Below are positions 9,275 to 44,643 of a DNA stretch of 64,000 nt, in pieces. This stretch comes from an uncultured delta proteobacterium. GTDB lineage: Bacteria; Desulfobacterota; Binatia; UBA9968. Each line of letters opens with the position of its first letter. The stretch's first letter is position 1. The translations under genes and the position numbers were made by a program. Under the pieces are notes generated by a model, which saw only the letters and a list, made by a program, of their open reading frames with translations, did not search any database and was not told the origin of the DNA. The stretch covers positions 32,001-96,000 of the forward strand of contig CAWJZV010000018.1 of the NCBI GenBank assembly GCA_963847445.1, given 5' to 3'.

Positions 9275-10721
9275 ATGAACACCGAAGAAATCGGTCTTTT
9301 ACTCAAACAAGAACGCGGTCAATTCCTCGAATTCATCAGCGCCTTCGAGTATCGGCGCAAATCCGGACAGAAAAAACGCGAGGAGGAGCTTTCCCGCGAG
9401 CTGGTGCGAGTCTTATCCGGCATGGCCAATGCCGACGGCGGCACGGTTTTAGTCGGTGTTGAGCCCGATAAGAGCGTCACCGGCATCCCCCACGATGGCG
9501 ACGAGCTGCAAACCTTGATTCAGGCGCCGCAGAACTTGCTCCGCCCCCAGCTCACTCCCGCCTGTGAAAAAGTTCGCTTGGGCAATCTGCAACTGCTCAA
9601 GTTCGAAGTCGCTTCGAGCATGGACATTCACCGCATCGCCGGCGGCCGTTCGTTTTACCGCATCGCCGCGGAAACCCCGGCCCTGCCGGCCGAGCAGATT
9701 CACTCGCTGAAAGAAGCCAAGCGCAACGTTTTTTACGAGCGCCAGCAAACCTTAAACGCCACTTGGTTCGACCTCGACACCGATCTGGTGAGCCAGTTCG
9801 TCAACAAACTGCATCCCGGTCAAGATCCCGCAGACGGTGTTAAGCCAGACCTATCATTTGCTCGACAACTCGCGCGCCATCCCCTGCCCCAACATGGCGG
9901 CGTTGCTGCTGTTCGCCAAAGAGCCGACGCGCTGGCATCCGCGCGCCGGCATCGACTTCGTCAAGTATGAGGGTAATGAACGGCAGCATGGCGCATCGCT
10001 CAACGTCGTCAAACGGATGCGCTTCGAAGCGCCGCTGGTGCGCTTGATCGACGAAGCGGTGGGCCGGATCAAGGAACAGGTGCGCGGCGCACCGTTCTGC
10101 ACGACTCTATTTTTCCGCGAACGCTTGGAGTATCCGACCTTTGCCTGGCAGGAAGCGCTGGTCAACGCGGTGGCCCACCGCGATTATTCGCTCACCGGCG
10201 CGTCCGTGGAAGTATGGATGTTCGACGATCACATCTGTGTGCGCAGCCCCGGCTTGCCGCCGGCGCCGGTGACGCTCGAACAGTTGCGCCTACAGAAAAG
10301 CATTCATTTCTCGCGTAATCCATTGATCGTCCGCGTGCTCGCCGATCTGGGCTTTGTGCGCGACATGGGCGAAGGCGTGCCGCGCATCTATCAAGAAATG
10401 GAGACCTACGGTCTCCACCCGCCGGAACTTTCCGCCGAAGGATTCGTTTTTACCGTGACTCTGCGCAACGCGCCGGTCTACGACGAAGCCACGCTGCGCT
10501 GGCTGAGCCAGTTCGCCAACAATCAAGTCAATCTGCGCCAACGCCGCTTGCTGGCTTACGCCTACTGCCATGGCAAGACCTTTTCGACCACGGAGTACGA
10601 GCGTATCGCCGAGGTCGACCGCGACACCGCCTACCGCGACATTCGCCTGATGGTCAAGAGCGGCATCGTCGCGCCGCTCAAACCGAAAAGCCGCAGCTAT
10701 CGCATCGTCGAAAAGCTTTAA
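9275..10721 (+). CDS. AlbA_2 (Schlafen-like) + RecG-C/HATPase_c_4 + HTH protein; frameshift near 9830
   Basis: GMANADGGTVLVGV, QEALVNAVAHRDYS, SPG, RNPLI, MGEGV and C-terminal TAYRDI HTH. Confidence 0.85.
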
Positions 10722-19765: not shown

Positions 19766-19987
19766 TTAAATCGGCCACTCCTTCGGCAGATCTTTCCTAA
19801 GCTTTTTGTATTCCGCGTCGTCGCTGTGCTGGGCGCGCAACCGCTTGAGCGCCGCGACGACTTCCTTTTGATCCTGCTTCACCGCGTTGGAGACCATACC
19901 CGTGGTCTCTTCGAAGCCGAGGCTTCAATTGCTGTGTCAGCCGCGCATCCGCTTGAGAATGTACAGATCGTCGTCTTTGCTAGCCAT
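19766..19987 (-). CDS. Putative 73-aa selenoprotein with two Sec residues (UxxxU motif)
   Basis: ATG at 19987 with GAGGTG RBS; reads MASKDDDLYILKRMRG-UGA-HSN-UGA-SLGFEETTGMVSNAVKQDQKEVVAALKRLRAQHSDDAEYKKLRKDLPKEWPI-TAA. UGAs at 19937-19939 and 19925-19927; hairpins follow. Confidence 0.72.
19890..19928 (-). promoter_or_regulatory. Two tandem candidate bacterial SECIS hairpins
   Basis: UUGAAGC-CUCG-GCUUCGA (19928-19911) and GAGACCA-CGGGUA-UGGUCUC (19909-19890). Confidence 0.6.
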
Positions 19988-19998
19988 GTCGGTGCACC

Positions 19999-20419
19999 TC
20001 AATTCGAGATTCCGGAAAAACCAACTTTCTGTGTGGTGATCAGCTCGGTCGCCGTTTCCGGCGCGCCGTCAGCCGTTACAGTGACGCGAATACGCACGAA
20101 AATTCGCCATGCTTCGCCGCGCCATTGGCAGTGAAAAATGACGAAGGCGTTTTCCGTAACCAATCCCGCCGGCTCGTCGCAATGGACGAGAATCGTAAAC
20201 TGCTTGCTTGCCCCCGCCGCCAATTCGAGCGCCGGCGCGAAACCAGTGCTCGGCTGATCTAAATTGGCCATGCGGCAATCGCGCCGAAATCATTGTTAAA
20301 GCAGCCGCGCCAAGATTCTCCAGCTCCCAGAGAATATTCCAACCCGCCGTCATCGCATCGCGCGCGAGCGCCATCTGGCGCAATGCAATTTTCGGTTCGG
20401 TGGTCGATTGCACCGCCAC
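19999..20419 (-). CDS. Hypothetical beta-rich protein; frameshift near 20240
   Basis: Two overlapping ORFs join into one protein (ARLPHGQFRS...ENAFVIF...WRIFVRIRV); tightly coupled to both neighbours. Confidence 0.65.
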
Positions 20420-20422
20420 AGT

Positions 20423-21426
20423 TTACTTAAGCCGGCCCTCTGCGCGCAATTCTTGCTGGGCTATTTTTAGAATGCGATCGTTGATCACTCGGTCCAAGGT
20501 AAAGTTTTTCTCGACCAGCCCGGCGCGAATATCTTCGTCGAGCATCTGCTGAAGACCCGGCAAGGCCACCGACAAGATCGCCCTTGCAAGCCGCCCGAGT
20601 AGAGATCCCAAGCCGCGCTGACGATCTCCGGATCGCCCTTCAGACCGGCATCGAAGCCCGCTTTAATCGCTTCCTTCTTGTTGAACTTGGCCAACTGCAT
20701 GCCCTGGATGTAGGCCTTGAGCATGCGCTTGCTGGTTTCGGGATATTTGTCGAGCACTTCGTTGCGCGTTACGAGAATATTCTGCGGGATCCCCAGCGAT
20801 TCACTCATGTTGCTGATGAGCGAATAGCCGGCGCGCATCAGGCGCACGCCGTCTTCGGGGGAGAACGGCGCCGCCGCGATCATGCCTTTTTCTATCGCCG
20901 CGGCGCGCAGCACTGTGCCGCCGATGGCGCGCAGGATCACGTCTTTATCGGGATTGAGATTGTGTTTGCGTAGAAATGCCTTGACGGCGAATTCCGAATA
21001 GGTTCCAGCGCCGGTGACACCGATCGGCTTGCCGCGCAAATCTTCCACCGTGCGCGTCTGCTTATTGCCGAGCAGGATATAGTTGGTCGTGCTCGAGATA
21101 CAGCCAAGTATCGTCAAGTCGAGTCCGCGCGATTTGCCGCGAAAGATCGCCTGCGCGCCGCCGATGCTGGCAAAATCCACTTCACCGGAAATCAAAGCCG
21201 CGATCGCCGCCGGACCGCCGCCAATCAGGATCGGCTCGATCTGCAACCCCTGCTGCTTGAAATAGCCGCGCGCCAACGCCGCCCGGAACGGAATCTCGCT
21301 ATTCCACGCGAGACTGACAAAGACCATGCGGACATTCTTCTTCTCCTGCGCCGACGCAACCCCAGCGCAAAGTACCGCGACGATAAGGCAAATCCCAATT
21401 TGCAGTGTTTTCCGAACACCCATCAT
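20423..21426 (-). CDS. NitT/TauT-family substrate-binding protein; frameshift near 20585
   Basis: Signal peptide, ARGYFKQQGL, AALISGEVDF and DLRGKPIGVT. Confidence 0.85.
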
Positions 21427-21466: not shown

Positions 21467-21934
21467 TCACCGTTTCGCATACACCGCGGTCTTGCCATTC
21501 TTATCGAACGTCAACACGCTATACGGCTCCGGCTTGCCGCCTTCCATGCCGGGCGACCCGACCGGCATGCCCGGAACGGCGAGGCCAACGATCGGCGGCC
21601 GATCTTTAATAACCTTGTGAATAAGATCCGCCGGCACATGGCCTTCGATGACGTAGCCGTCGATCAAAGCCGTGTGGCAAGCGAAAAGTTGTTGCGGCAC
21701 TCCACGCTGGCGCTTAAGGTCGGTAAACGCGTTGCCAAATAAGACTTTCTTTTCTACTTTGAATCCGTTTTTTTCCAGGTGCACGACCCAGCCATCGCAG
21801 CACTCTCAGGTCGGGGTCTTGTAGACCGTGATAGATTTTACCGCCGATTTCGACGGCGCTTGGCCTAACGTCGGAGCAACCATGAACAAGCTTAAAGCGA
21901 GAACGCAACAAGAGGCAAAACGGTTAATTCGCAT
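21467..21934 (-). CDS. DUF411-family periplasmic metal-binding protein with in-frame UGA (putative Sec) in the CxCC motif
   Basis: GGGAGG RBS, signal peptide, VYKTPT-UGA-ECCDGWVVHL, then ACHTA, EGHVPA and GLAVPGMPVGSPGME. UGA at 21806-21808. Confidence 0.85.
21779..21803 (-). promoter_or_regulatory. Candidate bacterial SECIS hairpin
   Basis: GUGC-U(bulge)-GCGAU-[GGCUGG]-GUCGU-GCAC, starting 2 nt after the UGA. Confidence 0.5.
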
Positions 21935-22026
21935 AGATCCTCCCAGCGCAGAGCAATTTATCAGATACGTTGACATAAATGCGAGCGCTGTTGTAACGAT
22001 TATCAATCTTGTGTAGGAGGCCGGCC

Positions 22027-23157
22027 ATGACCAAGAACGGCATGAAAGTTTTGGATAGCGACATGCACCTGATGGAGCCGGTGGATCTGTGGGAGCGCTA
22101 CATCGACGCGAAGTTCAAAGCCGATGCGCCGCGTGGCATAACCAGCGAAAACGTTCGGGACTTACGAATGGCCCACCCCGATGGCCGGCTCTGGGGCTTA
22201 CCGCCGCGCCACAGCGAACGCACCGTGATCAATCCCGGTCACAACTTCAAGAAAAATCAGGGCACCTACCGCGGCCATTCGGAGCGCGGCTGGAGCGCCG
22301 AAGTCCAGCTCGAAGCCATGGACATCGAAGGCATCGATGTCGCCGTGCTCTATCCGACCCGCGGATTGAATGTGCTGAGCGAACCGCATATGGAGCCCAA
22401 CTTCGCTGGCGCATTGGCCTGCGCTTATAACAACTGGCTCTATGATTTTTGCGAGAAAGATCCCAATCGCCTTCTCGGCGCCGGCATGCTCTCGCCCTTC
22501 GACATCAACGACGCGGTCAAGGAAGCCAAACGTTGCGTCAAAGAGCTGGGCTTTCGCGCCGTGTTCTTGCGCTCGAACATCATGAACGACCGCAACTGGT
22601 TCGATGCCTATTACGAACCGCTGTGGAGCACCTTGGAAGAGCTAGCGGTACCGGTGGGTTTTCACGAATCGTCGTCATCCGCGGCGCGCCAGACCGGCGA
22701 TTGGTTCGAGCCCAACTTCATGCTGCGCCGCGCCGTCGCCCAGCCGATGGAACAGATGCTCGGCCTGGTGGCGATTTGCTCCGGCGGGGTGCTCGCCCGC
22801 CACCCCAAGCTGCGCGTCGCGTTTCTCGAAGCCAATTGCACCTGGCTGCCCTGGCTCCTGTGGCGCCTGGACGAAGGCTGGGAACGCGAAGGGGATATCT
22901 GGGCCAAGGATCTGACCATGAAGCCCAGCGATTATTTCAAACGGCAAGTGTTCGTCTCGGTCGAACCGGACGAAGCCGGCGTGAAATATGTTATCGACTA
23001 TATCGGCACCGATCGTTTAGTCTTCTCCACCGATTATCCCCACGGCGATTCAAAATATCCTCAGGCCGTCGAAAGTTTTCTCGAGCTCAAGATCAGCGAC
23101 GACGACAAGCGGAAAATACTCTGGGACAATTGCGCCGAGTTCTACAAAGTTAGCTAA
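22027..23157 (+). CDS. Amidohydrolase family protein (Amidohydro_2)
   Basis: DSDMH, GIDVAVLYPT, VGFHE, FLEAN and FSTDYPHGD. Confidence 0.9.
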   Translation: MTKNGMKVLDSDMHLMEPVDLWERYIDAKFKADAPRGITSENVRDLRMAHPDGRLWGLPPRHSERTVINPGHNFKKNQGTYRGHSERGWSAEVQLEAMDIEGIDVAVLYPTRGLNVLSEPHMEPNFAGALACAYNNWLYDFCEKDPNRLLGAGMLSPFDINDAVKEAKRCVKELGFRAVFLRSNIMNDRNWFDAYYEPLWSTLEELAVPVGFHESSSSAARQTGDWFEPNFMLRRAVAQPMEQMLGLVAICSGGVLARHPKLRVAFLEANCTWLPWLLWRLDEGWEREGDIWAKDLTMKPSDYFKRQVFVSVEPDEAGVKYVIDYIGTDRLVFSTDYPHGDSKYPQAVESFLELKISDDDKRKILWDNCAEFYKVS

Positions 23158-23247
23158 GTCGTTCTAGCGCTCAGACGCAACGCTTGCTTGCGGCTGGTGC
23201 GCACTCCTGCTAACAAAGAGGAATTGTCTGACGGAAGAACTAATCTT

Positions 23248-24459
23248 ATGGCGAATGAAAGCCCAATCAGAAAGCTCAAGCTCGGCATCGTCGGCATCGG
23301 CGTCGGCGCCTCGGAAATCTTGCCGGCGATGGAGCAGATCCCCGAGTTCGAGCTCGCCGCCGCCGCCGATGTCAATCCGCGCGTGCTTGACACCTTCCGC
23401 GAACGTTATGGCGCGAAGACCTACGACAGCGTCGAGAAATTATGCGCCGATCCCAACGTCGAGGCGGTGTGGATATCGACGCCCAATCGATTTCACGCCG
23501 CCCACACGATCATCGCCGCCAACGCCGGCAAGCATGTGGTGGTCGAGAAACCGATGGCGATCTCGCTCCAAGAAGCCGAGAAAATGATCGAGGCGACGAT
23601 CAAGAATAAAATTAAACTCCTGTGCGGCCATACCCAGAGCTTCGGGCCGCATATCAGGACCATGCGCAAGATCATCCGCTCGGGTGAATTAGGCCGCCTA
23701 TGCGCCCTTCATGTCTGGGCCTATACCGATTGGATGCTCCGGCCGCGCACTGCGGACGAACTGGACATCAACCAGGGCGGCGGCGTGCCCTACCGCCAGG
23801 GGCCGCACCAGATCGACACATTGAGGCTGCTCGGCGGCGGCATGGTGCGCAGCGTGCGCGGCTCCACCGGCGCTTGGTTCAAAGGCCGGCCGATTCCCGG
23901 CTACTATTCGGCTTTCATGGAATTCGACGACGGCACTCCCGCAACGCTCATGCACAATGGCTACGGCTATTTTCTGGCGTCGGAATTGGTCCCATGGGGC
24001 GGCCAGAACAGCCGCTACAGCGAAGCCGAACGCGCAGCCGTGCGCAAATCCTTGCTCGACGGCACGCGGGACGAGAACGCCGACAAGGACGCCATGCGCA
24101 TCGGCGGCGCCAACGAACGAGAAATTCGCGACCGCAGCAAGGTCAAACCCTGGCTGCCCAACGACCTGGGCATTCTGGTCGCGACCTGTGAAAAAGGCGA
24201 CATCCGCCAGTCGCAACATGGACTGTTCGTCCACTGCGACGAAGGCACCAAGGACGTGCCGCTCATCGGCGGCGGCGGTCCGTCGCGGCGCGGCGAGCTG
24301 ATGGAACTCTACAATGCCGTCATACTCGACAAACCGATCCGCCACACCGGTCCCTGGGGCATGGCGACGCTGGAAGTCTGCCTGGCGATCATCGAATCGG
24401 CGAAGCAAAGAAAAGAGATTTACTTAAAGCACCAGGTGCCGGCGCCGGAGGAAGATTAA
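23248..24459 (+). CDS. Gfo/Idh/MocA oxidoreductase, phthalate 4,5-cis-dihydrodiol dehydrogenase-like
   Basis: HVVVEKPMA, YTDWMLRPR..ELD..GGGV.YRQGPHQID.LRLLGGG and GMATLEVC, as in the OphB/Pht4 subgroup. Confidence 0.8.
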   Translation: MANESPIRKLKLGIVGIGVGASEILPAMEQIPEFELAAAADVNPRVLDTFRERYGAKTYDSVEKLCADPNVEAVWISTPNRFHAAHTIIAANAGKHVVVEKPMAISLQEAEKMIEATIKNKIKLLCGHTQSFGPHIRTMRKIIRSGELGRLCALHVWAYTDWMLRPRTADELDINQGGGVPYRQGPHQIDTLRLLGGGMVRSVRGSTGAWFKGRPIPGYYSAFMEFDDGTPATLMHNGYGYFLASELVPWGGQNSRYSEAERAAVRKSLLDGTRDENADKDAMRIGGANEREIRDRSKVKPWLPNDLGILVATCEKGDIRQSQHGLFVHCDEGTKDVPLIGGGGPSRRGELMELYNAVILDKPIRHTGPWGMATLEVCLAIIESAKQRKEIYLKHQVPAPEED

Positions 24460-24470
24460 CAATCGAAAAA

Positions 24471-24632
24471 GCACGAAGCACGAAATCCGAAATTCGAAAC
24501 AAATCCAAATGACCCAATATCCAATGTTCCAAACGGTTCCGATCCGGATTCCGCGTTTTGAACATTTCAGCCGGTTTTCTAATTGTTTAGATGTTAGTTT
24601 GTTTCGGATTTCGATATTCGGATTTCGGATTT
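24471..24632. repeat. Heptamer-repeat palindromic intergenic element
   Basis: CGAAATCCGAAATTCGAAAC on the left and GTTTCGGATTTCGATATTCGGATTTCG on the right. Confidence 0.75.
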
Positions 24633-24667
24633 TCTGTCTGTCCAAGGTAAAAATCTAAGGAGGCTCC

Positions 24668-25648
24668 ATGCATAACAATCAAATCACCGTCGACGTTCAC
24701 GGCCACATGACCACACCCGCGGTATTCCGCCAGTTTCTCGCGGAAACCGTCTCGCAAAACACGCCCAATCGAAAATTGGATATGAGCGACGAGCAGCTCG
24801 AAGCCGCCCAGCAGCGCCATCTGAAATTCATGGACGACCGCGGCATCGACGTTCAGTTGATCGGCCCGCGCCCCATCGCCATGTGGCACTGGATGCGGCC
24901 GTTCCTGCAAGAGTTCTGGGCGTTCACGACCAACAATGTCATTGCCCGTATCGTCAAGTTGCACCCCGACCGTTTCCGCGGCATGGCGCAACTGCCGCAG
25001 TCGCGCGACAAGGACACGCGTAATTGTCTGCCCGAGTTCGAGCGCTGCATCAAGGAGCTGAACTTCGTCGGCGCTTATTTGAATCCCGATCCCGCCGGCG
25101 ACAAGCAGACTCCCGGCGTGCATGAAGAGTATTGGCACCCGCTCTACGACAAGGCGGTGCAATTGGATGTCCCGCTGATGGTCCATCCATCCACTACCTA
25201 TGACCGGCGGTTAGAAATCATCCCGGCGAACTATCAGATGAACAACTATCTGGAAGAGTTTGTCGCCATGCAGCTCTACATGCACAGCAAGATTTTCCAG
25301 ACCTTTCCGAAATTGAAGATCGTCATCTGCCACTGCGGCGGCGGACTTAACCGCTTCATCCCCAACGACCACCATGTCGGCCAGGGCGATTTCAGCAAGA
25401 ATCTCTTTTTCGATTCCTGTGTTTACGACGTGAACTACCTGGAAGCCGCCATCAAGCAACGCGGCGTCGACCAAGTCCTGTTCGGCACCGAGTCCCCCGG
25501 CTCCGGCGGCGCCGTGCGCAAAGACACCGGCAAGCCATCGGACGACATGATCCCGGTGATCGATGGTCTCGGATTCTTGAGCGCGGAGGATAAGCTGAAG
25601 ATCTTCCAGAAAAATCCTTTGAAAGTTTTCACAAAAGTAAAGATCTAA
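24668..25648 (+). CDS. Amidohydrolase, LigJ (4-oxalomesaconate hydratase)-like
   Basis: DVHGH, DVQLIGPRP, HPDRF..QLPQS, LNPDP, MVH and LFGTE.PG. Confidence 0.75.
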   Translation: MHNNQITVDVHGHMTTPAVFRQFLAETVSQNTPNRKLDMSDEQLEAAQQRHLKFMDDRGIDVQLIGPRPIAMWHWMRPFLQEFWAFTTNNVIARIVKLHPDRFRGMAQLPQSRDKDTRNCLPEFERCIKELNFVGAYLNPDPAGDKQTPGVHEEYWHPLYDKAVQLDVPLMVHPSTTYDRRLEIIPANYQMNNYLEEFVAMQLYMHSKIFQTFPKLKIVICHCGGGLNRFIPNDHHVGQGDFSKNLFFDSCVYDVNYLEAAIKQRGVDQVLFGTESPGSGGAVRKDTGKPSDDMIPVIDGLGFLSAEDKLKIFQKNPLKVFTKVKI

Positions 25649-25781
25649 GAAGGTGGAGGATGGAGTCACAAAAGATTGAAGATGGAGACTGGCGCAGTGC
25701 GTCGTGAGTCCTCGTATCTCCCATCCTCGACGATCTCCAGCCTCCAAGACAGCGGTGCGACAAACACAACGGAGGAGTTAC

Positions 25782-28008
25782 ATGGTTTACCAAGAGCGTC
25801 AATAGAGCAGTACCGCGCATCGAAGGTGCGGATAAAGTTTCCGGCAACATGCGCTACGCAGCGGACCTGAACTTCCCCGCCGCGTTGTCGGCGAAAATTC
25901 TGCGCAGCTCATTGCCCCACGCCCGCATCGTCAGCATCGACACCTCCAAGGCTGCGAAGCTGCGCGGTGTCCGTGGCATCATCACCGGCGCCGATGTCAA
26001 AGGCGTCATGGTCGGACTGCGCATGAAAGACATGCCGCTGCTCGCCGATGACAAGGTGCGCTACGCCGGCGAGCCGGTGGCCGCGGTTGCCGCGGACACC
26101 GACGAGATCGCCGAAGAGGCTTTGAATCTCATCGACGTGCAGTATCAAGAACTACCCTTCGTCACCGATCCCGTTGAGGCAACCAAAGCGGGCGCGCCGG
26201 TGCTGCACGACGATCCAATGTCCTACAAGAATGCCCCGGAGCGCGACATCGATCTGCCCAATGTGCAGTCCTACGGCAAATGGTCCAACGGCGATGTCGA
26301 CGCCGGCTTGCAAAAGGCCGCGCGCGTTTTCGAGCATACCTTCCGCACGCCGTTGGGATTTCACGGCTACATCGAGCCGCACGCATGCACCGTCGAGATT
26401 CATGACGACGGCCGCGTTGAAATCTGGGCGTCGAACAAAGCGCCATTCACACTGCGCGCTCGTTTTGCCCGCGATGTCGGCGTCGAGGAAGCGAAAGTCA
26501 AAGTTCACATTCTTCCGGTCGGCGGCGATTTCGGCGGCAAGACTTCGGTCGCCGAGGCGCCGATCTGCTATTTTCTCGCTAAGAAGACCGGCAAAGCGGT
26601 CCGCATGGTCTTGGAATACACCGAAGAGGTTACGGCCATTTCACACCGCCATCCGGCGGTGATCACGCTGCGCACCGGCGTCGATGGCGACAACAAGATT
26701 TGCGCCATGGCGATCAAAGCGGTGTTTAGCGGCGGCGGTTATGCGGCGCTCAAAGCCAACGCGGAAGTTACCGTCCAAGGCCCGCGCCGCGCGGCGAGCT
26801 ACTATCGCTTTCCGGCGATCCAAGTCGAAACCTTGTGCGTTTACACCAATCAAGTCCCCTGCACCCAGACGCGCACGCCGGGCAGCCCGCAGACTACCTT
26901 CGCCGTCGAATCTCAGATCGACATCATCGCCCGCGAGCTCGGACTCGACCCGGTGAAATTTCGCATGAACAATCTGCTCAACGCCGGCGATCCGACACCG
27001 TTCGGGCAAAAACTCCAAGGCATCGTCGTCAAGGAAACCCTGAGCAAAGCCCTCGAAGTTTCCGGCTGGAATAAGCCCAAGGCAAAGAACGTCGGCCGCG
27101 GCGTCGCCGTCTACGAACGGCCATCCGGCGCCGGCAAATCCGGCGCGGCAATCACCGTCGAAGCCGACGGCAGCCTGAGCGTTCATTTAGGCGTGCCCGA
27201 CGTCGGTCCCGGCATCCATACCGTGGTCCAGCAGATCGTCAGCGAAGTGCTCGAATTGCCCCGCGAGCGGGTGACGGTTCGCGTGCAAGACACCGACAGC
27301 TCGCCCTACGACTCCGGCACCGGCGGCAGCAAGTCGACCAACAGCGTCGGCACCGCCGCCTATCAAGCCGTCACCGAAGTTAAGGAAAAACTCATCGCCC
27401 TCGCGGCAATGAAATTTGGCTGCAAGCGCGAAGCGATCGCGGAATCGAAGGGCCGGTATAACGTGCCGGGGCAAAAGCCGATGTCATGCACCGACATGAT
27501 CCGCCACGCCGTCGCGCAGAACGGCGGCGCGCTGACGCACTTGAGTAACTACGAACCGGCACGCGCGCCGATCACGTCGTTTGCCGCACAGGTCGCCGAA
27601 GTCGAAGTCGACCCGGGCACCGGCCAGGTCAAAGTGACAAAACTCACGACAGTTCATGATTCTGGCACGGTCTTGAATCACTTGAGCTATACGGGGCAAA
27701 TCGACGGCGGCATCATCAACGGCTTAGGCTTCGCGCTGATGGAAGACAATTCGCTCGTCGACGGCAAGATGCCGACAGTCAACCTCGGCGAGTTCAAAAT
27801 GGCCAATATCGCCGACGTGCCGAAACTGACGACGGTGCTGATGGAAACTCCGGCGGGACCGATTCCCTATCAAGGCAAAGCCATAGCGGAAATTCCCAAC
27901 GTCCCGACCGCCGCCGCCATCGCCAACGCGATCCAAGACGCCTGCGGCGTGCGCATCTTGGATTTACCGATAACGGCGGAAAAGGTTTATGGGATGCTGA
28001 AGAAATAG
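25782..28008 (+). CDS. Xanthine/CO dehydrogenase-family molybdopterin-binding large subunit; frameshift near the start
   Basis: PRIEGADKVSG, HGYIEPH, VGGDFGGK, GQIDGG and KAIAE.PNVP..AAIANAI. Confidence 0.9.
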
Positions 28009-32179: not shown

Positions 32180-33311
32180 TTAATTGCGAATGTCCTGCAG
32201 TAGCCACTCGGTCGGAAATTCCCGGCCCAAGCCGCGCTCTTTGATTAGACGATAGGTCGCGCCGCCGACTGAAGCGAACTGAATACCTTGGATCTGATTG
32301 CCGCCGACTCCAAGGATTTCTTCATCATCGCGCCGGCCCGGATTGGCGCCATCGAATCAAGTCTTTGAAGCTGACTACTTTGCGCTTGTCGAAACCGCCC
32401 TCCCGTTCGATCTCCGGTATGCGCGCCAAGTCCTCCGGCTGGCCAGCAACGTAGGCGCGATGATTGCCTGAAATCTTTTGCGCGCGCGACACCGCGGCGC
32501 CAAATGCTTCTCCGGCGCGCGTCGGTGTTGGGCGCGAAAGTGTAAAAAGCGCGAATCCGCTCAGCGCAGGAGCGGTCGAGCTCGACACTGCCTTTCACGG
32601 TGCAAACAAAAGCGCCGGCATCGACGGACGCGGCCAGGAATGACCGGCACCGTAGCATCCGTGCAGGCCGAAACGATCTGCGCGCCGTTGACAGCTGCTT
32701 CAGCGGTTGCGACCGGAACCACTTCGACGCCAAGCCGCTCGGCCAACTTGTCGGCGAAGGCCTGGCGATTTGCCGGCGTCGGGCTATAGACTTGGACTCG
32801 TTTGATCCGCCGGACTTCGGCGAAGGCCAACGCATGGGTCCAGGCCATGCCGCCCGAGCCGATCATGCCGACAGTGTCAGCGGCCGCACTCGACAAATAC
32901 TTGGCCGCGATGCCGGCGGTGGCGCCGACTCGTAGGTGCTGCAAGTAGCCGTCGTTCATGATCGCCAGCGGCTCGCCGTTCTCGGTGCTGAATAGCAGAA
33001 TCAGACCGCAGAACAGTCCTGGCCGTTGGCAATATTTCTCTTGGGTTTTGACGCCACCGCGTTGGTCGACCAGTAGGCGATGTCGGACTTTATCCGGGTG
33101 GCAAATACCCCATAACGCCGGCTCGTTCCTTCCATCGAGCCCCACTGATAATAGCCCTGCGGATCGCCTGACGGCGCCCAGACATCGATCCGCGGCCGGC
33201 AGAGTGGCATCGCCGCGATAATACTCTTTGACTCCCTTCCTCGATGGCATCGAGACAGGTCTTCATGTCGAGCACCTGCTCGATATCCTGGTTACTGATG
33301 AGGAGAGCCAT
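32180..33311 (-). CDS. Ornithine cyclodeaminase/mu-crystallin family protein; multiple frameshifts
   Basis: GEPLAIMNDGYLQHLRVGATAGIA, GMIGSGGMA, VYSPT and C-terminal EWLLQDIRN. Confidence 0.8.
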
Positions 33312-33347: not shown

Positions 33348-33486
33348 CCCGCAAAGGCGCAAAGACGCTAAGTGACAGGCCAGAGGCCTGTCAACCCGAG
33401 CGAATGCGAGGGATCTAAGATGGATTTCTCTCTCCGTTCGAAATGACAACGTTCACCCTTTGCGCCTTGGCGCCTTTGCGGGAGAT
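33348..33486. repeat. Composite palindromic element (CGCAAAGGCGC arms flanking a TGTCA...TGACA REP)
   Basis: CCCGCAAAGGCGC / GCGCCTTTGCGGG outer arms; inner TGTCAACCCGAGCG...TCGAAATGACA. Confidence 0.65.
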
Positions 33487-33489
33487 CTC

Positions 33490-35740
33490 CTAATTTCTTC
33501 TTCTGCATCGCCCAGTAAATTTTCTCCGCTGACAAGCGGCAGATCGAACAGCCGCACGCCGCAGGCATCGGCGATGGCATTGGCAATGGCCGCCGCCGTC
33601 GGCACGTTGGGATTCTCGGCGATCGCTTTGCCGCCATAGGGCGTCGGCCCGGTGGGGCTTTCGACCAAGACCGTCTTCAACGGCGGCACGTCGGCGATGC
33701 ACGGCAGCTTCGCTTCGCCCAAGCTCAGGGTCGCGATCTTGCCGTCCACCAGCGGATTCTCTTCCATCAGGCGCAAAGCCAAATCCGGTGACGATACCGC
33801 CTTCGATCTGCCCGGTGAGGGTCAGATGATTGAGCACCGTGCCGGTGTCGTGCGCCGTGGTTAGATTCAAGACCTTGACGCCGCCGGTGGTCGGATCGAC
33901 TTCGACCTCGGCCACTTGAGCGGCGAAGCCGGTGACTTTCGGCATATCCTTCGGAACATAATTGGTCAGGTGAAATACCGGGCCGCCGTTTTCTTTGACG
34001 GCCAGCGCGATCATCTTTTCGGTGGTCGTCGACTTCTTGTTGGGCGCCGTGAGCTTGCCGCCCTGTTGCTCAATCTCCTCGGGCTGGCAACCCAACTCGC
34101 GCGCCGCCAAGGCGACTAACTTGGCGCGCACTTCTTGCGCCGACTGGTTGACCGCGTGGCCGGAAGTGTTGGTTTGTTTGCTGCCGCCGGTGCCCGGATC
34201 GAAGGGCAAGCTGTCGGTGTCTTTGAAAACCACGCCGACTTTTTCCGGCGGCAAGCCGAGCGCCTCGCAAACCATCTGCTGGCTGACCGTGTAATATCCC
34301 GGCCCGACGTCGGGCACGCCGGTGAGAATATTCACTCTTGCCGTCCGCCTCCAGCGTCAACGCCGAGCTCGCTTTGCCTTCCGGCGTGCCGCGATCGTAG
34401 AGCGCCATGCCCCAGCCGCGATTTTTCTTGGCGCCGCCTTTTTTCCAACCGGAGGTCTTGACGATGCGCTCCAGCACTTCGCCCATGAGAATGTGGCTCC
34501 ATTTCTCACCCATGGGATTGGCGTCGCCGTCGTGCAAAATATTCTTGCGGCGCAGCTCCAGGGCGTCGATGCCCATCTCCTTGGCGATGATGTCCATCTG
34601 CGATTCGAAGGCGAACACGACCTGCGGACTGCCCGGCGTGCGCGTCTGGGTGCAAGGCACTTGATTGGTGTACGAACAAAAAGTCTGCACGTCGATGGCC
34701 GGACAGCGGTACATGCTCGCCAAACGCCGCCCGCCAAGCACGGTCACTTGCGGATTGGCCTTCTGCGAACCGTAAGCGCCGCCGCTGAAGTAAATATCGC
34801 CTTTGACCGCCAGCAGCGTGCCGTCGGCGGCGACGCCGGTCTTCACCGTGATCACCGACGGATGGCGATGGCCGCCGATCAGGATTTCCTCGCTGTAGTC
34901 GAGCACCAGTTTTACCGGCTTGCCGCCGACAGCTTTCGATAGGTAATAGGCGATCGGCACGTCGATCAACGACGCCTTGGCGCCGAAATCGCCGCCGACA
35001 TGGACGATGTGAACCTTGATCTTCTCCTGCGGCACGCCGAAGTCTTCGGCCATCTGCTCGCGCAAGCCCCAGGGCCCCTTGTTCGACGCCCACACTTCGA
35101 CCTGGCCATTGGCATGAACCTGCACCGTGCAGGCGCACGGCTCGATGTAGCCATGATGCGACAGCGGCGTGCGAAAGGTGTGTTCGAAAACCCGCGCCGC
35201 CTGAGCGAAACCGGCCTCGACATCGCCGTTCTTCCAGCGCACGTAGGATTGCAGATTATGGCCGGACATTCCTTCCGGCAGCTTCGGCGTGTTCTTATAT
35301 TTATTGCGATCCTCGTGGATCAGCGGCGCGCTCGGCTTCAGCGCTTCCACCGGATCGTCGACGTAGGGCAGCTCTTCATACTCAACGTCGATCAAACCGA
35401 TCGCTTCATCGGCAATCGCCTCGCTGTCGGCCGCCACCGCGGCGATCGCATCCCCTGCCATCCGGACCTTGTCGTAAGCCAACACCGGCTGGTCTTTCAC
35501 CCGCGTGCCGACGAAGATGTCTTTCACGTCCGCGCCGGTGAGCACCGCGCGCACGCCCTTCAACGCCTTGGCCTTCGAAGTGTCGACTTTGACGATGCGC
35601 GCGTGGGCCACCGAAGCGCGCAACACCTTCGCCCACAGCAGCCCTTCAAACGGCAAATCCGCCGCGTACTTGGTCTGCCCGGTTACTTTGCCGTACCCTT
35701 CGATGCGGGGCAGTGTTTTACCAATGGTGCGATAAGCCAC
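33490..35740 (-). CDS. Xanthine/CO dehydrogenase-family large subunit, second paralog; frameshifted, end approximate
   Basis: GGAGG RBS with GTG start; PRIEGYGKVTG, HGYIEP, VGGDFGAK, RTPGSPQ and KAIAENPNVP. Confidence 0.88.
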
Positions 35741-35887
35741 ATGACCTCCCAGTTCTATTTTGGATTTTAGATTGCCGATTTTGGATTGCCGGATCAAGAA
35801 TCGGAAACCTACTTCGAAGACATCAACTGTCGATACGTCTTACTCCCAATCTGAAATCCTACAATGCCTATTGTCTCATGCCTCTGC

Positions 35888-36884
35888 CTACTTAATCACC
35901 CGATTCGCCCGCGAGAGAAACTCCGGCGAGAGTGTCAGTCCGATCTGTTTCGCCGCCTTCAAGTTGATGACAAACTCAAACTTCGTCGCCTGCTGCACCG
36001 GCAGATCAGCCGGCTTGGCGCCTTTCAAGATCTTGTCCACGTAAACAGCCGCGCGCCGATAGAGGTCAGTCGTAGTCCGCCCCATAGGACATGAGACCGC
36101 CCTCATCGACAAACTCCTTCTGGAAGTAAATAGCCGGCAACCGGTATTTGCCGGCAAGCTCGACGATCCGCTTTCTTTCGGCGAAAAAGGGGCGAGTGGC
36201 GGTCGTCATAATCGCGCCCACCTGCTTCTGCTTTGCGGTTTGAAAGGCGCTCTCTAAACCTTTGGCGTCGAGTTGAGTCTCGATCTCTTCCAATTTTAGC
36301 TTCAGTGCCAGAGCCGCAGGCCTGAGCTCTTTCAGTTGGAGGTCTGATCCTACGCCGCCTCCCGGCGGCCGCAGAAGTCCAACTCGGGCGAGCTTGGGGA
36401 CCGCGTCCTTGAGTATCTCTAGCCTTTTGGTATTTAGCTCGGTCGCTAAACTCGAGAGCCCGGTGACATTGCCTCCCGGCCGCGCCAGACTGGCAACCAA
36501 ACCTGCACCCACGGGGTCCCCAGCGGTCGCCATCACGATGGGGATGGTAGTAGTCGCTTTCTTCGCCGCCAACGCCGATGGCGTCCCTGCGACCACGATC
36601 AGATCAACCTTAAGACGAACCAGGTCCGCCGCAAGCTCAGGTAGGCGCTCAGGCTTTTGCTCGGCAAATCGGTACTCGATGGTGATATTCTTTCCCTCAA
36701 TCCATCCAAGCTTGCTCAGCTCTTGCCGGAACGCCTCCACGAGGACCGCGCTACCGGAAGCAGTGCTTGCATCCAGGAAACCGATGCGGAAGATTTTCCC
36801 TGGCTGCTGCGCGTGAGCGGCGGACGCAGTAAGCGCAAGGAGCAAAGCGCCAGAGCGCTGAAGACAATAGATTTTTTTCATCAT
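35888..36884 (-). CDS. ABC_sub_bind-family (PF04392-like) substrate-binding protein, copy A; frameshifted
   Basis: IEGKNITIEYR, LVRLKVDLIV, SLARPGGNVTG and GAKPADLPVQQ..KFEFVINLKAAKQIGL. Confidence 0.88.
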
Positions 36885-36948
36885 GAGATTTTCTCCCGCT
36901 GTCTTCTGACTGACTGCTGATCTCTGACTTCTGATCTCTGGCAGACTG

Positions 36949-37940
36949 TCACTTGATCACCCTATTCGCCCGCGCGAGCACCTCCGGCGGGAATCGTCAG
37001 TCCGATCTGCTTCGCCGCTTTCAAGTTGATGACGAACTCAAACTTCGTCGCCTGCTGCACCGGCAGATCAGCCGGCTTGGCGCCTTTCAAGATCTTGTCC
37101 ACGTAAACCGCGGCGCGCCGATAGAGGTCATCGAAGTCCGCCCCATAGGACATGAGGCCGCCGTCATCGACAAACTCCTTCTGAAAGTAAATAGCTGGCA
37201 ACCGGTATTTGCCGGCAAGCTCGACGATCCGCTTTCTTTCGGCGAAAAAGGGGCGAGTGGTGGTCGTCATAATCGCGCCCACCTGCTTCTGCTTCGCGGT
37301 TTGAAAGGCGCTCTCTAAACCTTTGGCGTCGGGTTGAGTCTCGATCTCCTCCAATTTCAGCTTCAGCGCCACAGCCGCAGGCCTGAGCTCTTTCAGTTGG
37401 AGGTCCCAGGATATGCTATGTCCCGACGGCCGCAGAAGTCCAACTCGGGCGAGCTTGGGGACCGCGTCCTTGAGGATCTCTAGCCTTTTGGTGTTTAGCT
37501 CGGGCGCTAAACTCGAGAGCCCGGTGACATTGCCTCCCGGCCGCGCCAAGACTGGCAACCAAACCTGCACCCACGGGGTCCCCAGCGTTCGCCATCACGA
37601 TGGGGATGGTAGTAGTCGCTTTCTTCGCCGCTAACGCCGACGGCGTCCCTGCGACCACGATCAGATCAACCTTAAGACGAACCAACTCCGCCGCAAGCTC
37701 AGGCAGGCGCTCAGTCTTTTGCTCGGCAAAACGGTACTCGATGGTGATATTCTTTCCCTCGATCCATCCAAGCTTGCGCAGCTCTTGCCGGAACGCATCC
37801 AAGAGGACCGCGATACCAGAAGCAGTGCTTGAATCCAGGAAACCTATGCGGAAGATTTTCCCCGGCTGCTGCGCGTCGGCAACGGGGACAATAATCGGAA
37901 AGACAATTGCCAGTAGCCAGAAGAGAACGGATTTCATCAT
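36949..37940 (-). CDS. ABC_sub_bind-family substrate-binding protein, copy B; frameshifted
   Basis: Same motifs; DNA nearly identical to copy A outside the signal peptide. Confidence 0.88.
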
Positions 37941-37992
37941 GGACTTGTCTCCGATGTTCTTACCGACACCGAACACTGACTGCTGGCCACGC

Positions 37993-39045
37993 TCACTTGA
38001 TTACTCTGTCTGCTCGGACCAGCACATTCGGCGGGATCGTCAGGCCGATTTGCTTCGCCGCTTTCAGATTGACGACGAACTCAAACTTCATCGGTTGCTC
38101 GACTGGGAGATCGGCGGGCTTGGCGCCTTTCAAAATCTTGTCGACGAAAACGGCGGCGCGGCGTAGTAAGTCGTTCTGGTTCACGCCGTAGCTCATCAGC
38201 CCGCCATCTTCGACAAAGTTGCTTTGCGGATAAGAAGCCGGGAGACGGCTCTTTACCGCGTGTTGGGCAAGCTGGGTTCGCCTGAGTACTAATCACCGGA
38301 CCCCGCAGTACAAAAACAGCTTCAGCCCGAGCCTTAGTAGCCTCTTGGAACGCGACTCCGATATCCTTGGCGCTTAAAATGTCTAGGAATTGAAGCTGCA
38401 TTCTGAACGCCCCCGCGGCGCGTTCGGTCTCTCTCAACTGGATGCCGTTACCGGCGTTGGCTGAATTCCCAAATACCGCCAAACGGGAGAGCTTCGGCAC
38501 AATCTCTTTGAGCAGCTCTAGCCGCTTTCCCGATAAGTCCGCTACCATCGAGGACAACCCAGTGATATTCCCTCCCGGTCGCGCAAGGCTTGTCACGAAG
38601 CCGTTTCCGATGGGATCAGGATCCTGAAAAACACTATGGGGATCGTGGTGGTTGCTTCCTTGGCGGCCCGGGTATTTGTCGCACCTCCCGTAACGATCAC
38701 GTCTACCTTGAGACGCACAAGTTCGGCAGCGCGGCCAGCCTCATTTTTCTCCGCGCTTGGGGATTCAATGACGAAATTTGTTCCCTCGACGTAGCCGAGT
38801 TCGCGCAGGCCTTGTCGGAATGCGCTTAAGCTGGCCGAGTTGGCGGAAGGGTTGCTGATGCTAAAGTAGCCTATCCGGTGGACTTTCTTCGGCTGCTGAG
38901 ACTCAACCCCATCGGCCAATCCTACGAAGGCAATAACGAGGGCAGCAAGCTCCACCCATTTAGATCTGCGGCGCCGCTTTTGGATTTTCGATTGCCGATT
39001 GTCGGATTGAGAACCCAGAAACGGATTTAGCGATTTTTTGTCCAT
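37993..39045 (-). CDS. ABC_sub_bind-family substrate-binding protein, copy C (divergent); frameshifted
   Basis: LRELGYVEG, SLARPGGNITG, KRLELLKE and ADLPVEQPMKFE. Confidence 0.85.
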
Positions 39046-42815: not shown

Positions 42816-44610
42816 TCAAACCATAATTTCATGCACCGGCACATATTGCTTCGTTGCTGCCGGCCAAAATCGCTTTCACACCATCGACGATATGATGCGG
42901 CATGAACGGTTCGCCGTCATATTTGCGAATATGACCGTCGGCGACGATGCCGGTCTCCGACCGTAAATAACGCGCGAACTGGCCGCTATAGTTGTTCTCG
43001 ACGATGATGGTTTTCTTGCTCTTTGCCAGAGTCGAAACGATCGCTTCGCCGTGCAGCGGCACGAGCCATTTGATCTGGAGCAAGATTAGCGGCGATGCCT
43101 TCCTCGTCGGCCAGCTTCTGGATCGCCTCTTGGACGACCCCTTCGGTGGAGCCCCACCCGACCAGCGTGACTTGCGCGTCAGCGGCGCCCCAGAGCTTGG
43201 GCGCGTCGAGCAGCGGCAAAATCGAATCCATCTTGCGCATGCGTTTCTCATGCATCGCCTGGCGCTTGTGCGGGTTGGTGTACTCGTCGCTGATCAACAC
43301 GCCGTCTTCATCGTGATCGTCGGTGGCGACCACATGTTCGAAACCCAGCGTGCCCGGCAGCGCGCGCGGCGAGATGCCGCTGTCGTTGATCTCATAGCGC
43401 TTGTAGCCGCCGTTGAGCGGCGGCGTGGCGCCGTTGAGGCCGATCACCTCGCCGCGTTCGATGGGCACGTTGAAGTCCAGCTCCGCCGGATCGACGCTCG
43501 ATCGGCCTTCGGAGAGCAGTAAATCTGAAAGAATGATGCCGGGACACTGAAACTTGTCGACCAGGTTGAACAGTTGCGGCACCGTATTGAAAACAATCCG
43601 GGATCGTCGTCGGCGCGACGATGATGCGCGGATAGTCGCCCTGCCCCGCGCCCATCGCCTGCCACAGATCGCCTTGTTCGGTTTTCGTCGGCACGCCGGT
43701 GGCCGGCCCGGCGCGCTGCACGTTGATACAGACCACGGGAATTTCCATCATCGCCGCGGCGCCCAGTCCCTCGGTCATCAAAGCGAATCCGCCGCCGGAG
43801 GTCGCGCACATGGCGCGGCAGCCGGCGTGGGCCGCGCCGATGGCCATATTGATGACGCCGATCTCGTCCTCCACTTGGCGCACCATGATGTCCAATTGGC
43901 GCGCGTGGCGCGCCATCCAGTGGAGCACGCCGGACGACGGGCTCATCGGATAGGCGCAGTAAAAGCGCACTCCCGCCGCCGCGCCGCCCATGGCCAACGC
44001 CTGGTTGCCTTCGAAGAACGCCAGTTTTTTGCCGGTATCCGGCAGCGTGACCGGCAAGCGCTTTGAACTGCGCCGCCGCGTAATCGTAACCGGCGCGCGC
44101 CACGCCGACGTTCTCGGCGATCACCGCGTCGCCTTTCCGTTTGAACTGCAAGCTGAGTATCTCTTCGAGAATTTTGAATTCGACGCCGATCAGCCGCAGC
44201 ACTGCGGCCAAGGCAATCGTATTCTGCACCAAGTCGCCTCGGACCGCCGGCGCCAGTTCCTTCACCGAGAAGCCGCAAAGCTGAACCCCGGCCGCGGCGC
44301 CGTCAGGTTTGATCTTGTCCTTGTTGTAAAGCACGGAAGAGCCCGGCGTCATCAAGCCGAGATGGCGATTCATGGTATCTTGATTGAGCGCGATTAAAAC
44401 ATCGAGCTTGTCGCCGAAGCTCAGCACCGGCGCGTCGCTGGTGCGCAAGGTGAGAAATATATGACCGCCGCGCACGATCGACTGATAAGCATTGTAGGCG
44501 TTTAGATGCAGCCCGCGGCGCACGAAGATGCGCGCCAGGATATCGCCGGGCGTGGCGATGCCCTGGCCGGCTGCGCCGCCGATTGCGATGGAAAGATCGA
44601 CTTTCGCCAT
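42816..44610 (-). CDS. korA: 2-oxoacid:ferredoxin oxidoreductase alpha subunit; frameshifted
   Basis: GGAAGQGI, GNQALAMG, YPMSPSS, EDEIG, TSGGGFALM, QRAGPATGVPTKTEQ and VENNYSGQ. Confidence 0.9.
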
Positions 44611-44643
44611 ACTCAAGACCTCCTCTGGCCGGTTGTTAAGCCT

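Follow-up and report, generated by a model that had tools for sequence, protein, structure and literature searches.

A DUF411/CopG-type gene of Binatia with an in-frame UGA at the first cysteine position of the CxCC motif, very likely a selenoprotein gene

CopG-like proteins are described in a review as periplasmic proteins that bind a tetranuclear copper cluster through a CxCC motif and two methionines (PMC7558416). Here we analyze a gene of the same family (DUF411, PF04214) in a 64-kb stretch of DNA from an uncultured delta proteobacterium of the Binatia (contig CAWJZV010000018.1; the whole stretch is called the window below), in which an in-frame UGA stands in for the first cysteine of this motif, so that CxCC becomes UxCC (U-E-C-C, which can also be read as UxxC). 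Judging from comparisons with related sequences, the gene is very likely a genuine selenoprotein gene, in which UGA would be decoded as selenocysteine (Sec) by the ordinary bacterial mechanism.

According to two reviews, prokaryotic selenoproteins are most often thioredoxin-fold proteins in which Sec takes the place of the N-terminal cysteine where helix 1 starts (PMC9312934, PMC13188914). The thioredoxin-fold selenoproteins with UxxC or CxxU motifs (Grx, Prx-like, DsbA-like, ‘thioredoxin-like selenoprotein Sec.1/Sec.2’) resemble the putative Sec-containing DUF411 protein in having Sec at the start of helix 1 and abundant Cys homologues, but the motif of the latter is the ligand set of a metal cluster, UxCC, and not a simple redox dithiol. 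Selenoproteins predicted to handle metals have also been listed (a Cu/Zn efflux transporter of the SO_0444 family with UxC, MbdU, a ‘metal-binding protein’ with UxxU, a CopZ-like 2Fe-2S protein and SaoB/SaoC; PMC13188914; Haft preprint). They carry Sec at a presumed soft-metal ligand position, as proposed here, and some of them are extracytoplasmic (PMC13188914; Haft preprint), but their folds and families are unrelated and none of them is DUF411.

Under the standard code (table 11), the locus is split into two open reading frames (ORFs) on the minus strand: one at 21806-22006 (-) with the C-terminal end ...SITVYKTPT, followed by TGA, and one at 21467-21784 (-), of 105 residues, that begins at an internal GTG. 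Translation of TGA as U yields a single frame of 155 codons, MRINRF...SITVYKTPT-U43-ECCDGWVVHLEK..., with the following features:

21467..21934 (-), “Sec-type” DUF411/CopG coding sequence, 155 codons plus the terminal TGA stop at 21467-21469 (from the TGA=U translation, PF04214, 6WIS and Foldseek)
21806..21808 (-), in-frame UGA at codon 43, proposed selenocysteine (TGA in 8/8 Binatia-type orthologues, TGC/TGT in 10/10 relatives of other phyla)
21779..21803 (-), hairpin resembling a selenocysteine insertion sequence (SECIS; from RNA folds and low local nucleotide divergence)
21863..21934 (-), predicted signal peptide, residues 1-24, MRINRFASCCVLALSLFMVAPTLG then QA (by inspection only)
21939..21944 (-), Shine-Dalgarno sequence GGGAGG, 4 nt 5' of the ATG at 21932-21934 (from the sequence)

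The original prediction, which had been made from the letters of the window, placed a TGA in frame and without any indel at the first cysteine of the CxCC motif (VYKTPT-UGA-ECCDGW), with the remaining family motifs 3' of it; it proved right on every point and needs to be supplemented only by the strand of the gene, which is minus. The Pfam model for DUF411 matches residues 85-130 (E 2.2e-24, 85.4 bits against a cutoff of 27), downstream of the UGA, while NCBIfam contains no model for this protein. In an alignment of 21 sequences, the motif region is free of indels, position 43 is Cys in the relatives that are read with the standard code, and C45, C46, C86, H87, T88, P121, M123, P124, P128, G129 and M130 are invariant, which includes the C-H-T and the Met/Pro positions of the family. 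The x-C-C part of the motif (C45, C46) is thus constant and its first position is a UGA; for this position to provide a chalcogen ligand, the codon would have to be read as Sec or Cys.

A genome scan recovered 17 loci besides the window, seven of them from metagenome-assembled genomes titled Candidatus Binatia or ‘uncultured delta proteobacterium’. Together with the window, these seven (L001-L007, 4-20 kb each, about 116 kb of DNA in addition to the 64 kb of the window) form the “Sec-type” set (n=8), and the relatives in other phyla form the “Cys-type” set (n=10; 3 Gemmatimonadota, 4 Gammaproteobacteria, 1 Solibacteraceae, 1 Hyphomicrobiales and 1 Aestuariivirga). TGA occupies the position of codon 43 in 7/7 Binatia-type loci, which are independent assemblies with 64-90% amino-acid identity, and TGC or TGT is found at the same codon in all ten Cys-type loci. 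Since eight of eight orthologues have TGA at the same codon, its presence is beyond chance, and a sequencing error or a private nonsense mutation as its source is excluded; the possibility raised alongside the original prediction, that the TGA might be unique to this assembly, falls with it. The reading of this Cys-to-UGA match at a metal or redox ligand as the mark of a selenoprotein is supported by the recurrence and by the pairing with Cys in 10/10 relatives from other phyla.

The same codon leaves its trace in protein predictions. Among the best 120 matches in the protein database, 116 are predictions of 105-123 residues whose start is the earliest GTG or ATG that follows the CC (with starts such as MVHLEK, VVHLEK, MSHLEK and similar), and four are full-length, with S (one), W (two) or C (one) at the UGA position. 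P0077, a close match named by NCBI as ‘DUF411 domain-containing protein [Candidatus Binatia bacterium]’, is annotated as the form of 105-106 residues. A second subclade, around the W-type protein P0065, is affected too: the best 120 neighbours listed comprise 83 short forms, 34 full-length proteins with Cys and 3 full-length proteins with W. Truncated predictions of this sort are what gene callers yield when an in-frame stop is present. In a quick maximum-likelihood tree, every short form groups with the TGA forms verified in DNA, and one branch (support only 35%) separates the 11 Cys forms from the rest; a single origin of the TGA form would be compatible with this tree, which does not demonstrate it.

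Both flanks of the TGA are, from their pattern of substitutions, coding and under purifying selection. The ratio of nonsynonymous to synonymous differences (pN/pS), summed over the 28 sequence pairs of the eight Sec-type genes, is 0.87 in the signal-peptide part, 0.37 in the 17 codons before the TGA, 0.31 in the next 8 codons and 0.15 in the remainder. The amino acids ITVYKTPT are constant while several of their codons differ synonymously, and at both Cys codons that separate the TGA from the first possible restart, TGC and TGT alternate, again without a change of residue. The stretch that would be left untranslated by a restart is therefore under selection at the protein level. The start codon lies 41-42 codons 5' of the TGA in 8/8 genes (ATG in seven, GTG in L004) and is preceded in all eight by a Shine-Dalgarno-like motif (GGGAGG, GGAGG or GGGAG-like). 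The N-terminus of the window protein (MRINR, a hydrophobic core, TLG/QA) has the layout of a signal peptide for the Sec translocon (the secretion pathway, not selenocysteine), which the original prediction had also located 5' of the UGA; by inspection, this n/h/c layout with its TLG/QA site is kept in 8/8 orthologues despite the drift of the sequence seen in the high pN/pS. UGA is a normal stop in this DNA and is not reassigned: the 40 Pfam-supported ORFs of the window end in TGA (23), TAA (10) or TAG (7), and the DUF411 gene itself also ends in TGA.

The only solved relative found by sequence is PDB 6WIS/6WJE, CopG of Pseudomonas aeruginosa, deposited as a DUF411 protein (E 5.6e-29, residues 34-153), and the UGA aligns with the first Cys of its CGCC. 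An AlphaFold (AF2) model built from the 21-sequence alignment (predicted local distance difference test, pLDDT, 86.9) was compared with known structures by Foldseek and retrieved 6wis_A, ‘copper resistance protein copG’, with an E of 2.8e-14, a target-normalised template modelling (TM) score of 0.91 and, in the same superposition, a root-mean-square deviation of 1.5 Å over 125 columns at 44% identity. The predicted fold matches the thioredoxin-like fold of CopG, with residue 43 between a strand (33-39) and a helix (45-55), which is the position of CxxC in thioredoxin folds. The Sec-type protein and P. aeruginosa CopG have in common the family, the fold, the motif positions x-x-C-C, C-H-T and GMPxGSPGM and an N-terminal export signal, which for the Sec-type protein is predicted by inspection. 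They differ in that the first Cys is encoded by UGA in the Sec-type gene, that x of the motif is E or D in the subclade of the window and G in CopG, that the Sec-type protein has a 2-residue insertion after strand 2, and that the Sec-type gene heads a conserved cluster with NMT1-like binding proteins.

In recoding of the Escherichia coli fdhF type, SelB recognises a SECIS hairpin that immediately follows the UGA and is itself part of the coding sequence. The bulged-U hairpin that the original prediction saw just 3' of the UGA was recovered by folding: it starts 5 nt after the UGA and consists of GUGC, a bulged U, GCGAU, the loop GGCUGG, GUCGU and GCAC (with the U of UGA as nt 1, pairs 6-9/27-30, bulged U10, pairs 11-15/22-26 and loop nt 16-21). 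It resembles the fdhF type in its place just 3' of the UGA and within the coding sequence, in its G-rich apical loop and in the bulged U of its 5' arm; it differs in that the sequence and register of the hairpins of this kind vary among subclades. L001 and L002 have the same hairpin as the window (loop nt 16-21), and L003 has identical bases, for which the minimum-energy fold of 55 nt chose a different pairing. The hairpin reads GAUGGCU, loop GGAUG, AGCCAUC in L004-L006 (loop nt 20-24) and GUGGGUG, loop GGU, CACCUAC in L007 (loop nt 25-27). All eight Sec-type genes thus have a hairpin whose G-rich loop lies 16-27 nt from the UGA, and no consistent hairpin occurs in the ten Cys-type genes (folding z -0.75 to +1.35). 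A loop that starts 16 nt from the U of UGA, as in the window, is at the short end of the published range.

Constraint at the level of the RNA is also visible in the substitutions. In two groups of orthologues, A (the four closest) and B (L004-L006), the fewest nucleotide differences fall in codons 0 to +10 counted from the TGA: over these 11 codons, group A shows 0.83 differences per pair and 33 nt against 4-10 in most of the gene, and group B shows 0.67 against 2-6 elsewhere. This dip at synonymous sites fits an overlapping functional RNA, which predicts it.

A second gene of the same cluster bears on the decoding of UGA. A screen for TGAs conserved together with flanking protein similarity between the window and the related loci left, apart from off-frame artefacts inside known genes, only the DUF411 codon and one small gene, which lies about 1.8 kb downstream of the DUF411 gene in the same orientation:

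19766-19987 (-), second candidate selenoprotein gene, 73 codons, with UGAs at 19937-19939 and 19925-19927 (TGAs conserved in 5/5)
19890..19909 (-), invariant hairpin GAGACCA[CGGGUA]UGGUCUC, proposed SECIS, 3' of both UGAs of the small gene (30 nt identical in 5/5)

The translation, MASKDDDLYILKRMRG-U-HSN-U-SLGFEETTGMVSN..., contains two TGAs in a motif that reads RMRG-U-HSN-U-S/G across genomes, and both are present in 5/5 sequences having the gene (the window; L001, 12947-13168; L005, 12962-13183; L006, 12947-13168; L007, 12975-13196). In L002, L003 and L004 a search for the motif gave no such gene (the contig of L004 ends 1.2 kb past the DUF411 gene). Among 71 aligned codon columns, 25 are identical, 22 differ only synonymously and 24 change the residue, and 30 consecutive nt (GGC TTC GAA GAG ACC ACG GGT ATG GTC TCC) are identical in 5/5; they hold a hairpin whose loop begins at a distance of 38 nt from UGA 1 and 26 nt from UGA 2, each counted with its U as nt 1. 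The 60-nt fold has a free energy (dG) of -22.1 kcal/mol and a z of -2.78, and 3/200 shuffles were as stable.

Of the best 120 database matches of the small protein, 118 are fragments of 43 or 51 residues that start after the second TGA, and the two full-length ones (P0123, P0124) have W at both UGA positions. An exhaustive HMMER search with it gave 34 representatives, and ten longer, distant homologues that were inspected have Cys at both positions, in the form [GN]-C-[YF]-x-x-C (CxxxC). Neither the Sec nor the Cys forms have a family in Pfam or NCBIfam. The model is a four-helix bundle (pLDDT 87.5, with only 2/5 models above 80 and an alignment of 7 sequences), in which one helical turn separates the two U positions, near where helix 1 ends; a fold search of the PDB gave nothing at E <= 0.001 (best 0.71), and the structure neighbours of a Cys homologue in the Protein Atlas are domains of the helix-turn-helix (HTH) type (TM 0.55-0.65), which serve as leads only. 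The 73-codon gene probably represents a second selenoprotein family, with two Sec residues, and it provides independent though indirect evidence that UGA is read as Sec in these organisms.

Taken together, decoding of the UGA as Sec is supported indirectly, because three TGAs in two genes of one cluster align with conserved cysteines, because nucleotide conservation rises over the hairpins 3' of these TGAs, and because UGA also serves as an ordinary stop. Several observations weigh on the other side. The genes selA, selB and selD and a tRNA-Sec were not found in the 64-kb window or in the seven loci of 4-20 kb. A few database proteins read through the UGA position, with W in P0065, P0092 and P0278 and with S in P0002. 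The hairpin of the window is not exceptionally stable (34 nt, dG -12.0 kcal/mol, z -1.29, 23/200 shuffles as stable; z only -0.86 for the 55-nt fold), z falls below -2 in just 3/8 Sec-type sequences (L004-L006, -2.2 to -2.9), and the hairpins of the three subgroups differ in register and sequence, so that there is no support from covariation for a common structure. Rfam gave no SECIS match in the whole window at gathering thresholds or in 21650-21900 at E up to 10, its output consisting of tRNA-Met and one chance match to a CRISPR repeat; Rfam is not known to hold a general bacterial SECIS model. Finally, apparent indels and split genes indicate that the base-level quality of the window is imperfect.

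The first two of these points would suit a reading in which the UGA is read through as Cys or Trp, either by a Cys-charged tRNA(Sec)-like tRNA via SelB or by a near-cognate tRNA-Trp. Natural SelB-dependent recoding of UGA to Cys has been described, and with P0123 and P0124 of the small protein there are five full-length predictions with W at TGA positions. All five W forms come from a single source (jgi) and from contigs of no more than 1130 bp, and they stand among short-form relatives; P0279, the closest to the W-type P0065 (84% identity), is a short form that starts right after the motif. Tryptophan would be unable to replace a cysteine that ligates a cluster, and the UGA position pairs with Cys, not Trp, in 34/37 full-length neighbours of P0065 (among the best 120 listed) and in 10/10 relatives from other phyla. 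Moreover, the conserved constraint on the downstream RNA is predicted by SelB-dependent decoding, not by leaky read-through. We infer that the W forms are at least as likely to be translation artefacts as real TGG codons, and probably more so, and read-through as Cys or Trp appears improbable.

Two ENA proteins of the database also deserve mention. P0002 (ENA), with S at the UGA position, shares an identical C-terminal part with the short-form cluster P0086 and is suspected to be an artefact. P0080 (ENA, 153 residues, from a contig of 1019 bp) has an N-terminal half of the Cys-type DUF411 (ILVFKDPSCGCC) with a Tat-like RRSLL leader, and its last ~60 residues are identical to the window protein, which suggests either a chimera made in assembly or a recombinant.

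Were the UGA a true stop, the locus would encode an exported peptide of 42 residues and a truncated cytoplasmic DUF411 domain starting from an internal GTG or ATG, as public gene calls of 105-106 residues (e.g., P0077) have it, and the Pfam match to DUF411 does lie wholly downstream of the UGA. Such a truncated protein would be devoid of strand 1, of the export signal and of the entire metal motif. Translation from the first possible restart would skip 6-7 codons after the TGA that specify the family's conserved xCC-D/T-G/K-W and that change synonymously; upstream, ITVYKTPT makes up strand 1 and stays invariant in spite of synonymous changes in its codons; the frame is kept across the TGA in 8/8; and the Shine-Dalgarno sequence precedes the upstream ATG, with none seen by inspection before the internal GTG of the window. 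Termination at this codon is accordingly given a very low probability. A last alternative, which the apparent 1-nt indels and several split genes of the window might favor, is that the locus is a pseudogene whose TGA stems from an error of sequencing or assembly or from a nonsense mutation of recent date. It is refuted by TGA in 7/7 other assemblies (by different assemblers, judging by the contig names), by a protein that diverges down to 64% identity with purifying selection on both sides of the TGA, and by the same stop implied by 116 of the best 120 protein clusters.

If the UGA is decoded as Sec, the ribosome would start at the ATG at 21934 behind the strong Shine-Dalgarno sequence, and at codon 43 the hairpin 5 nt downstream would recruit SelB with Sec-tRNA(Sec), so that Sec would be inserted instead of termination. 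The full-length pre-protein would be exported via the Sec translocon, with removal of the signal peptide. In the mature protein the selenolate would lie at the N-terminal end of helix 1, in the place of the nucleophilic Cys of the thioredoxin CxxC. Along with C45, C46 and conserved Met and His side chains, the selenolate would ligate copper or participate in redox reactions between Cu(I) and Cu(II), a role that has been proposed for CopG.

By analogy, the best reading of the protein is that of a periplasmic CopG-type copper-cluster or redox protein in which a selenolate takes the place of the first thiolate. No cop, cus or multicopper-oxidase gene was found within 10 kb at any of the 8 Sec-type loci in the DNA examined, so the copper role is suggested by homology. 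Four of the ten Cys-type loci have copper-gene neighbors (a CusB-like gene and OEP in L010, MerR-CopC-CopD in L014, a multicopper oxidase in L015, SCO1 and PCuAC in L016); linkage to copper genes is typical of DUF411/CopG, does not define it and is absent at the Sec-type loci. The unusual gene context leaves room for a different physiological job.

The neighborhood on the 3' side of the DUF411 gene comprises, besides the small gene, two features in the window:

20485..21426 (-), NMT1/THI5-like periplasmic binding-protein gene, directly 3' of the DUF411 gene (Pfam)
19999..20271 (-), 90-residue remnant of an ORF of ~140 residues, between the NMT1 genes and the small gene, with its 5' part missing in the window

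The NMT1/THI5-like gene is probably co-transcribed with the DUF411 gene; it lies directly downstream on the same strand in 7/8 Sec-type loci (not in L002). The usual order 3' of it is a second NMT1 gene, the ORF of ~140 residues and the small UxxxU gene. The ORF is full length in L005 (12509-12934), L006 (12493-12909) and L007 (12520-12948), with the sequence LPHGQFKS...EPAGLVTENAFVIF...WRIFVRIRV...ITTQ[KR]VGFSG; it has no family in Pfam or NCBIfam, and its neighbors in the Atlas are only unnamed clusters from Chloroflexota and Binatota. Compared with its closest relative L001 (19600-20600 against L001 11350-12700), the window lacks about 1.1 kb, in which NMT1 gene number two and the 5' portion of the ~140-residue ORF would lie, and shows 1-nt indels at 20583, 20577 and 20244, two of which frame-shift the 3' end of the NMT1 gene at 20485-21426.

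On the other side and the opposite strand, a GFO/IDH/MocA oxidoreductase gene is found upstream in 8/8 loci, mostly with Amidohydro_2 and molybdopterin-binding (MoCoBD) genes. In the window this divergent conserved cluster (22009-28008, +) consists of Amidohydro_2, the GFO/IDH/MocA oxidoreductase, another Amidohydro_2 and a molybdopterin subunit of the xanthine-dehydrogenase family, and TENA/PQQC-like and Haem_oxygenas_2 genes are located near it. A Mo-Cu CO dehydrogenase, as a client for copper, was considered for the gene at 25849-28008 and rejected, as neither of two motif patterns of the CoxL active site is present. Elsewhere in the window, split or truncated genes suggest an assembly prone to indels or many pseudogenes: an ABC_sub_bind gene in four pieces (36066-39045), a MoCoBD gene without its second domain (33453-35797), a partial ornithine cyclodeaminase gene (32561-33250), a POR/2-oxoacid:ferredoxin oxidoreductase gene that enters an overlapping frame (42986-44616) and a Schlafen-AlbA_2/HATPase_c_4 gene present as two overlapping ORFs (9275-10721).

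The recurrent gene order, SecDUF411, NMT1, NMT1, the unknown protein of 140 residues and the UxxxU protein, invites a tentative and rather doubtful suggestion, namely that the putative Sec-CopG and the double-Sec UxxxU helical protein form one conserved, Binatia-specific selenium-dependent system whose job is not classical copper resistance. Such a system might couple a periplasmic Se-ligated Cu cluster with a changed redox potential or metal specificity both to uptake mediated by the binding proteins and to a Sec-based regulator or sensor of HTH-like fold in the cytoplasm.

In the published record we met no counterpart of the gene. A search of the full-text literature gave no paper on DUF411 with selenocysteine or selenoprotein and, among the matches listed, no relevant paper on Binatia with selenocysteine (supplements and subscription journals lie outside this search). 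DUF411, pfam04214, CopG and UxCC do not occur in the table of 87 prokaryotic selenoprotein families of a 2022 review (PMC9312934), nor do they, or UxxxU, occur in the table of 119 families of a 2026 review (PMC13188914); the original prediction had called an exported Sec-containing DUF411 protein unusual and had suggested comparison with such lists, and the two tables agree with it. The family is unmentioned in the main texts of deep-Sep (PMC12013277), BSepDB (PMC13326102) and the Global Ocean Sampling (GOS) study (PMC2398784), and in the Haft preprint. The list of genomes examined for BSepDB contains at least 11 genomes of Binatia (PMC13326102). Very probably, the Sec-type DUF411 protein belongs to an unlisted selenoprotein family of the thioredoxin-fold kind in which Sec replaces Cys.

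If Sec is inserted, DUF411/CopG would be a further selenoprotein family, and the double-Sec family related to CxxxC proteins may be another. More than 100 database clusters would then be N-terminally truncated, without signal peptide and metal motif, and hence mis-annotated. The recoding mechanism itself would be ordinary; the interest lies in Sec within a copper-cluster motif of an exported protein, in a form widespread in a soil phylum, and in a double-Sec neighbor that is not listed in the tables of 87 and 119 families. Selenocysteine would be a ligand of a tetranuclear copper cluster, or adjoin it, and the Sec and Cys forms would constitute a natural Se/S pair for the effect of a selenolate on Cu(I) affinity and redox behavior in an exported protein. 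The shared cluster would join two selenoproteins in one operon-like unit in Binatia.

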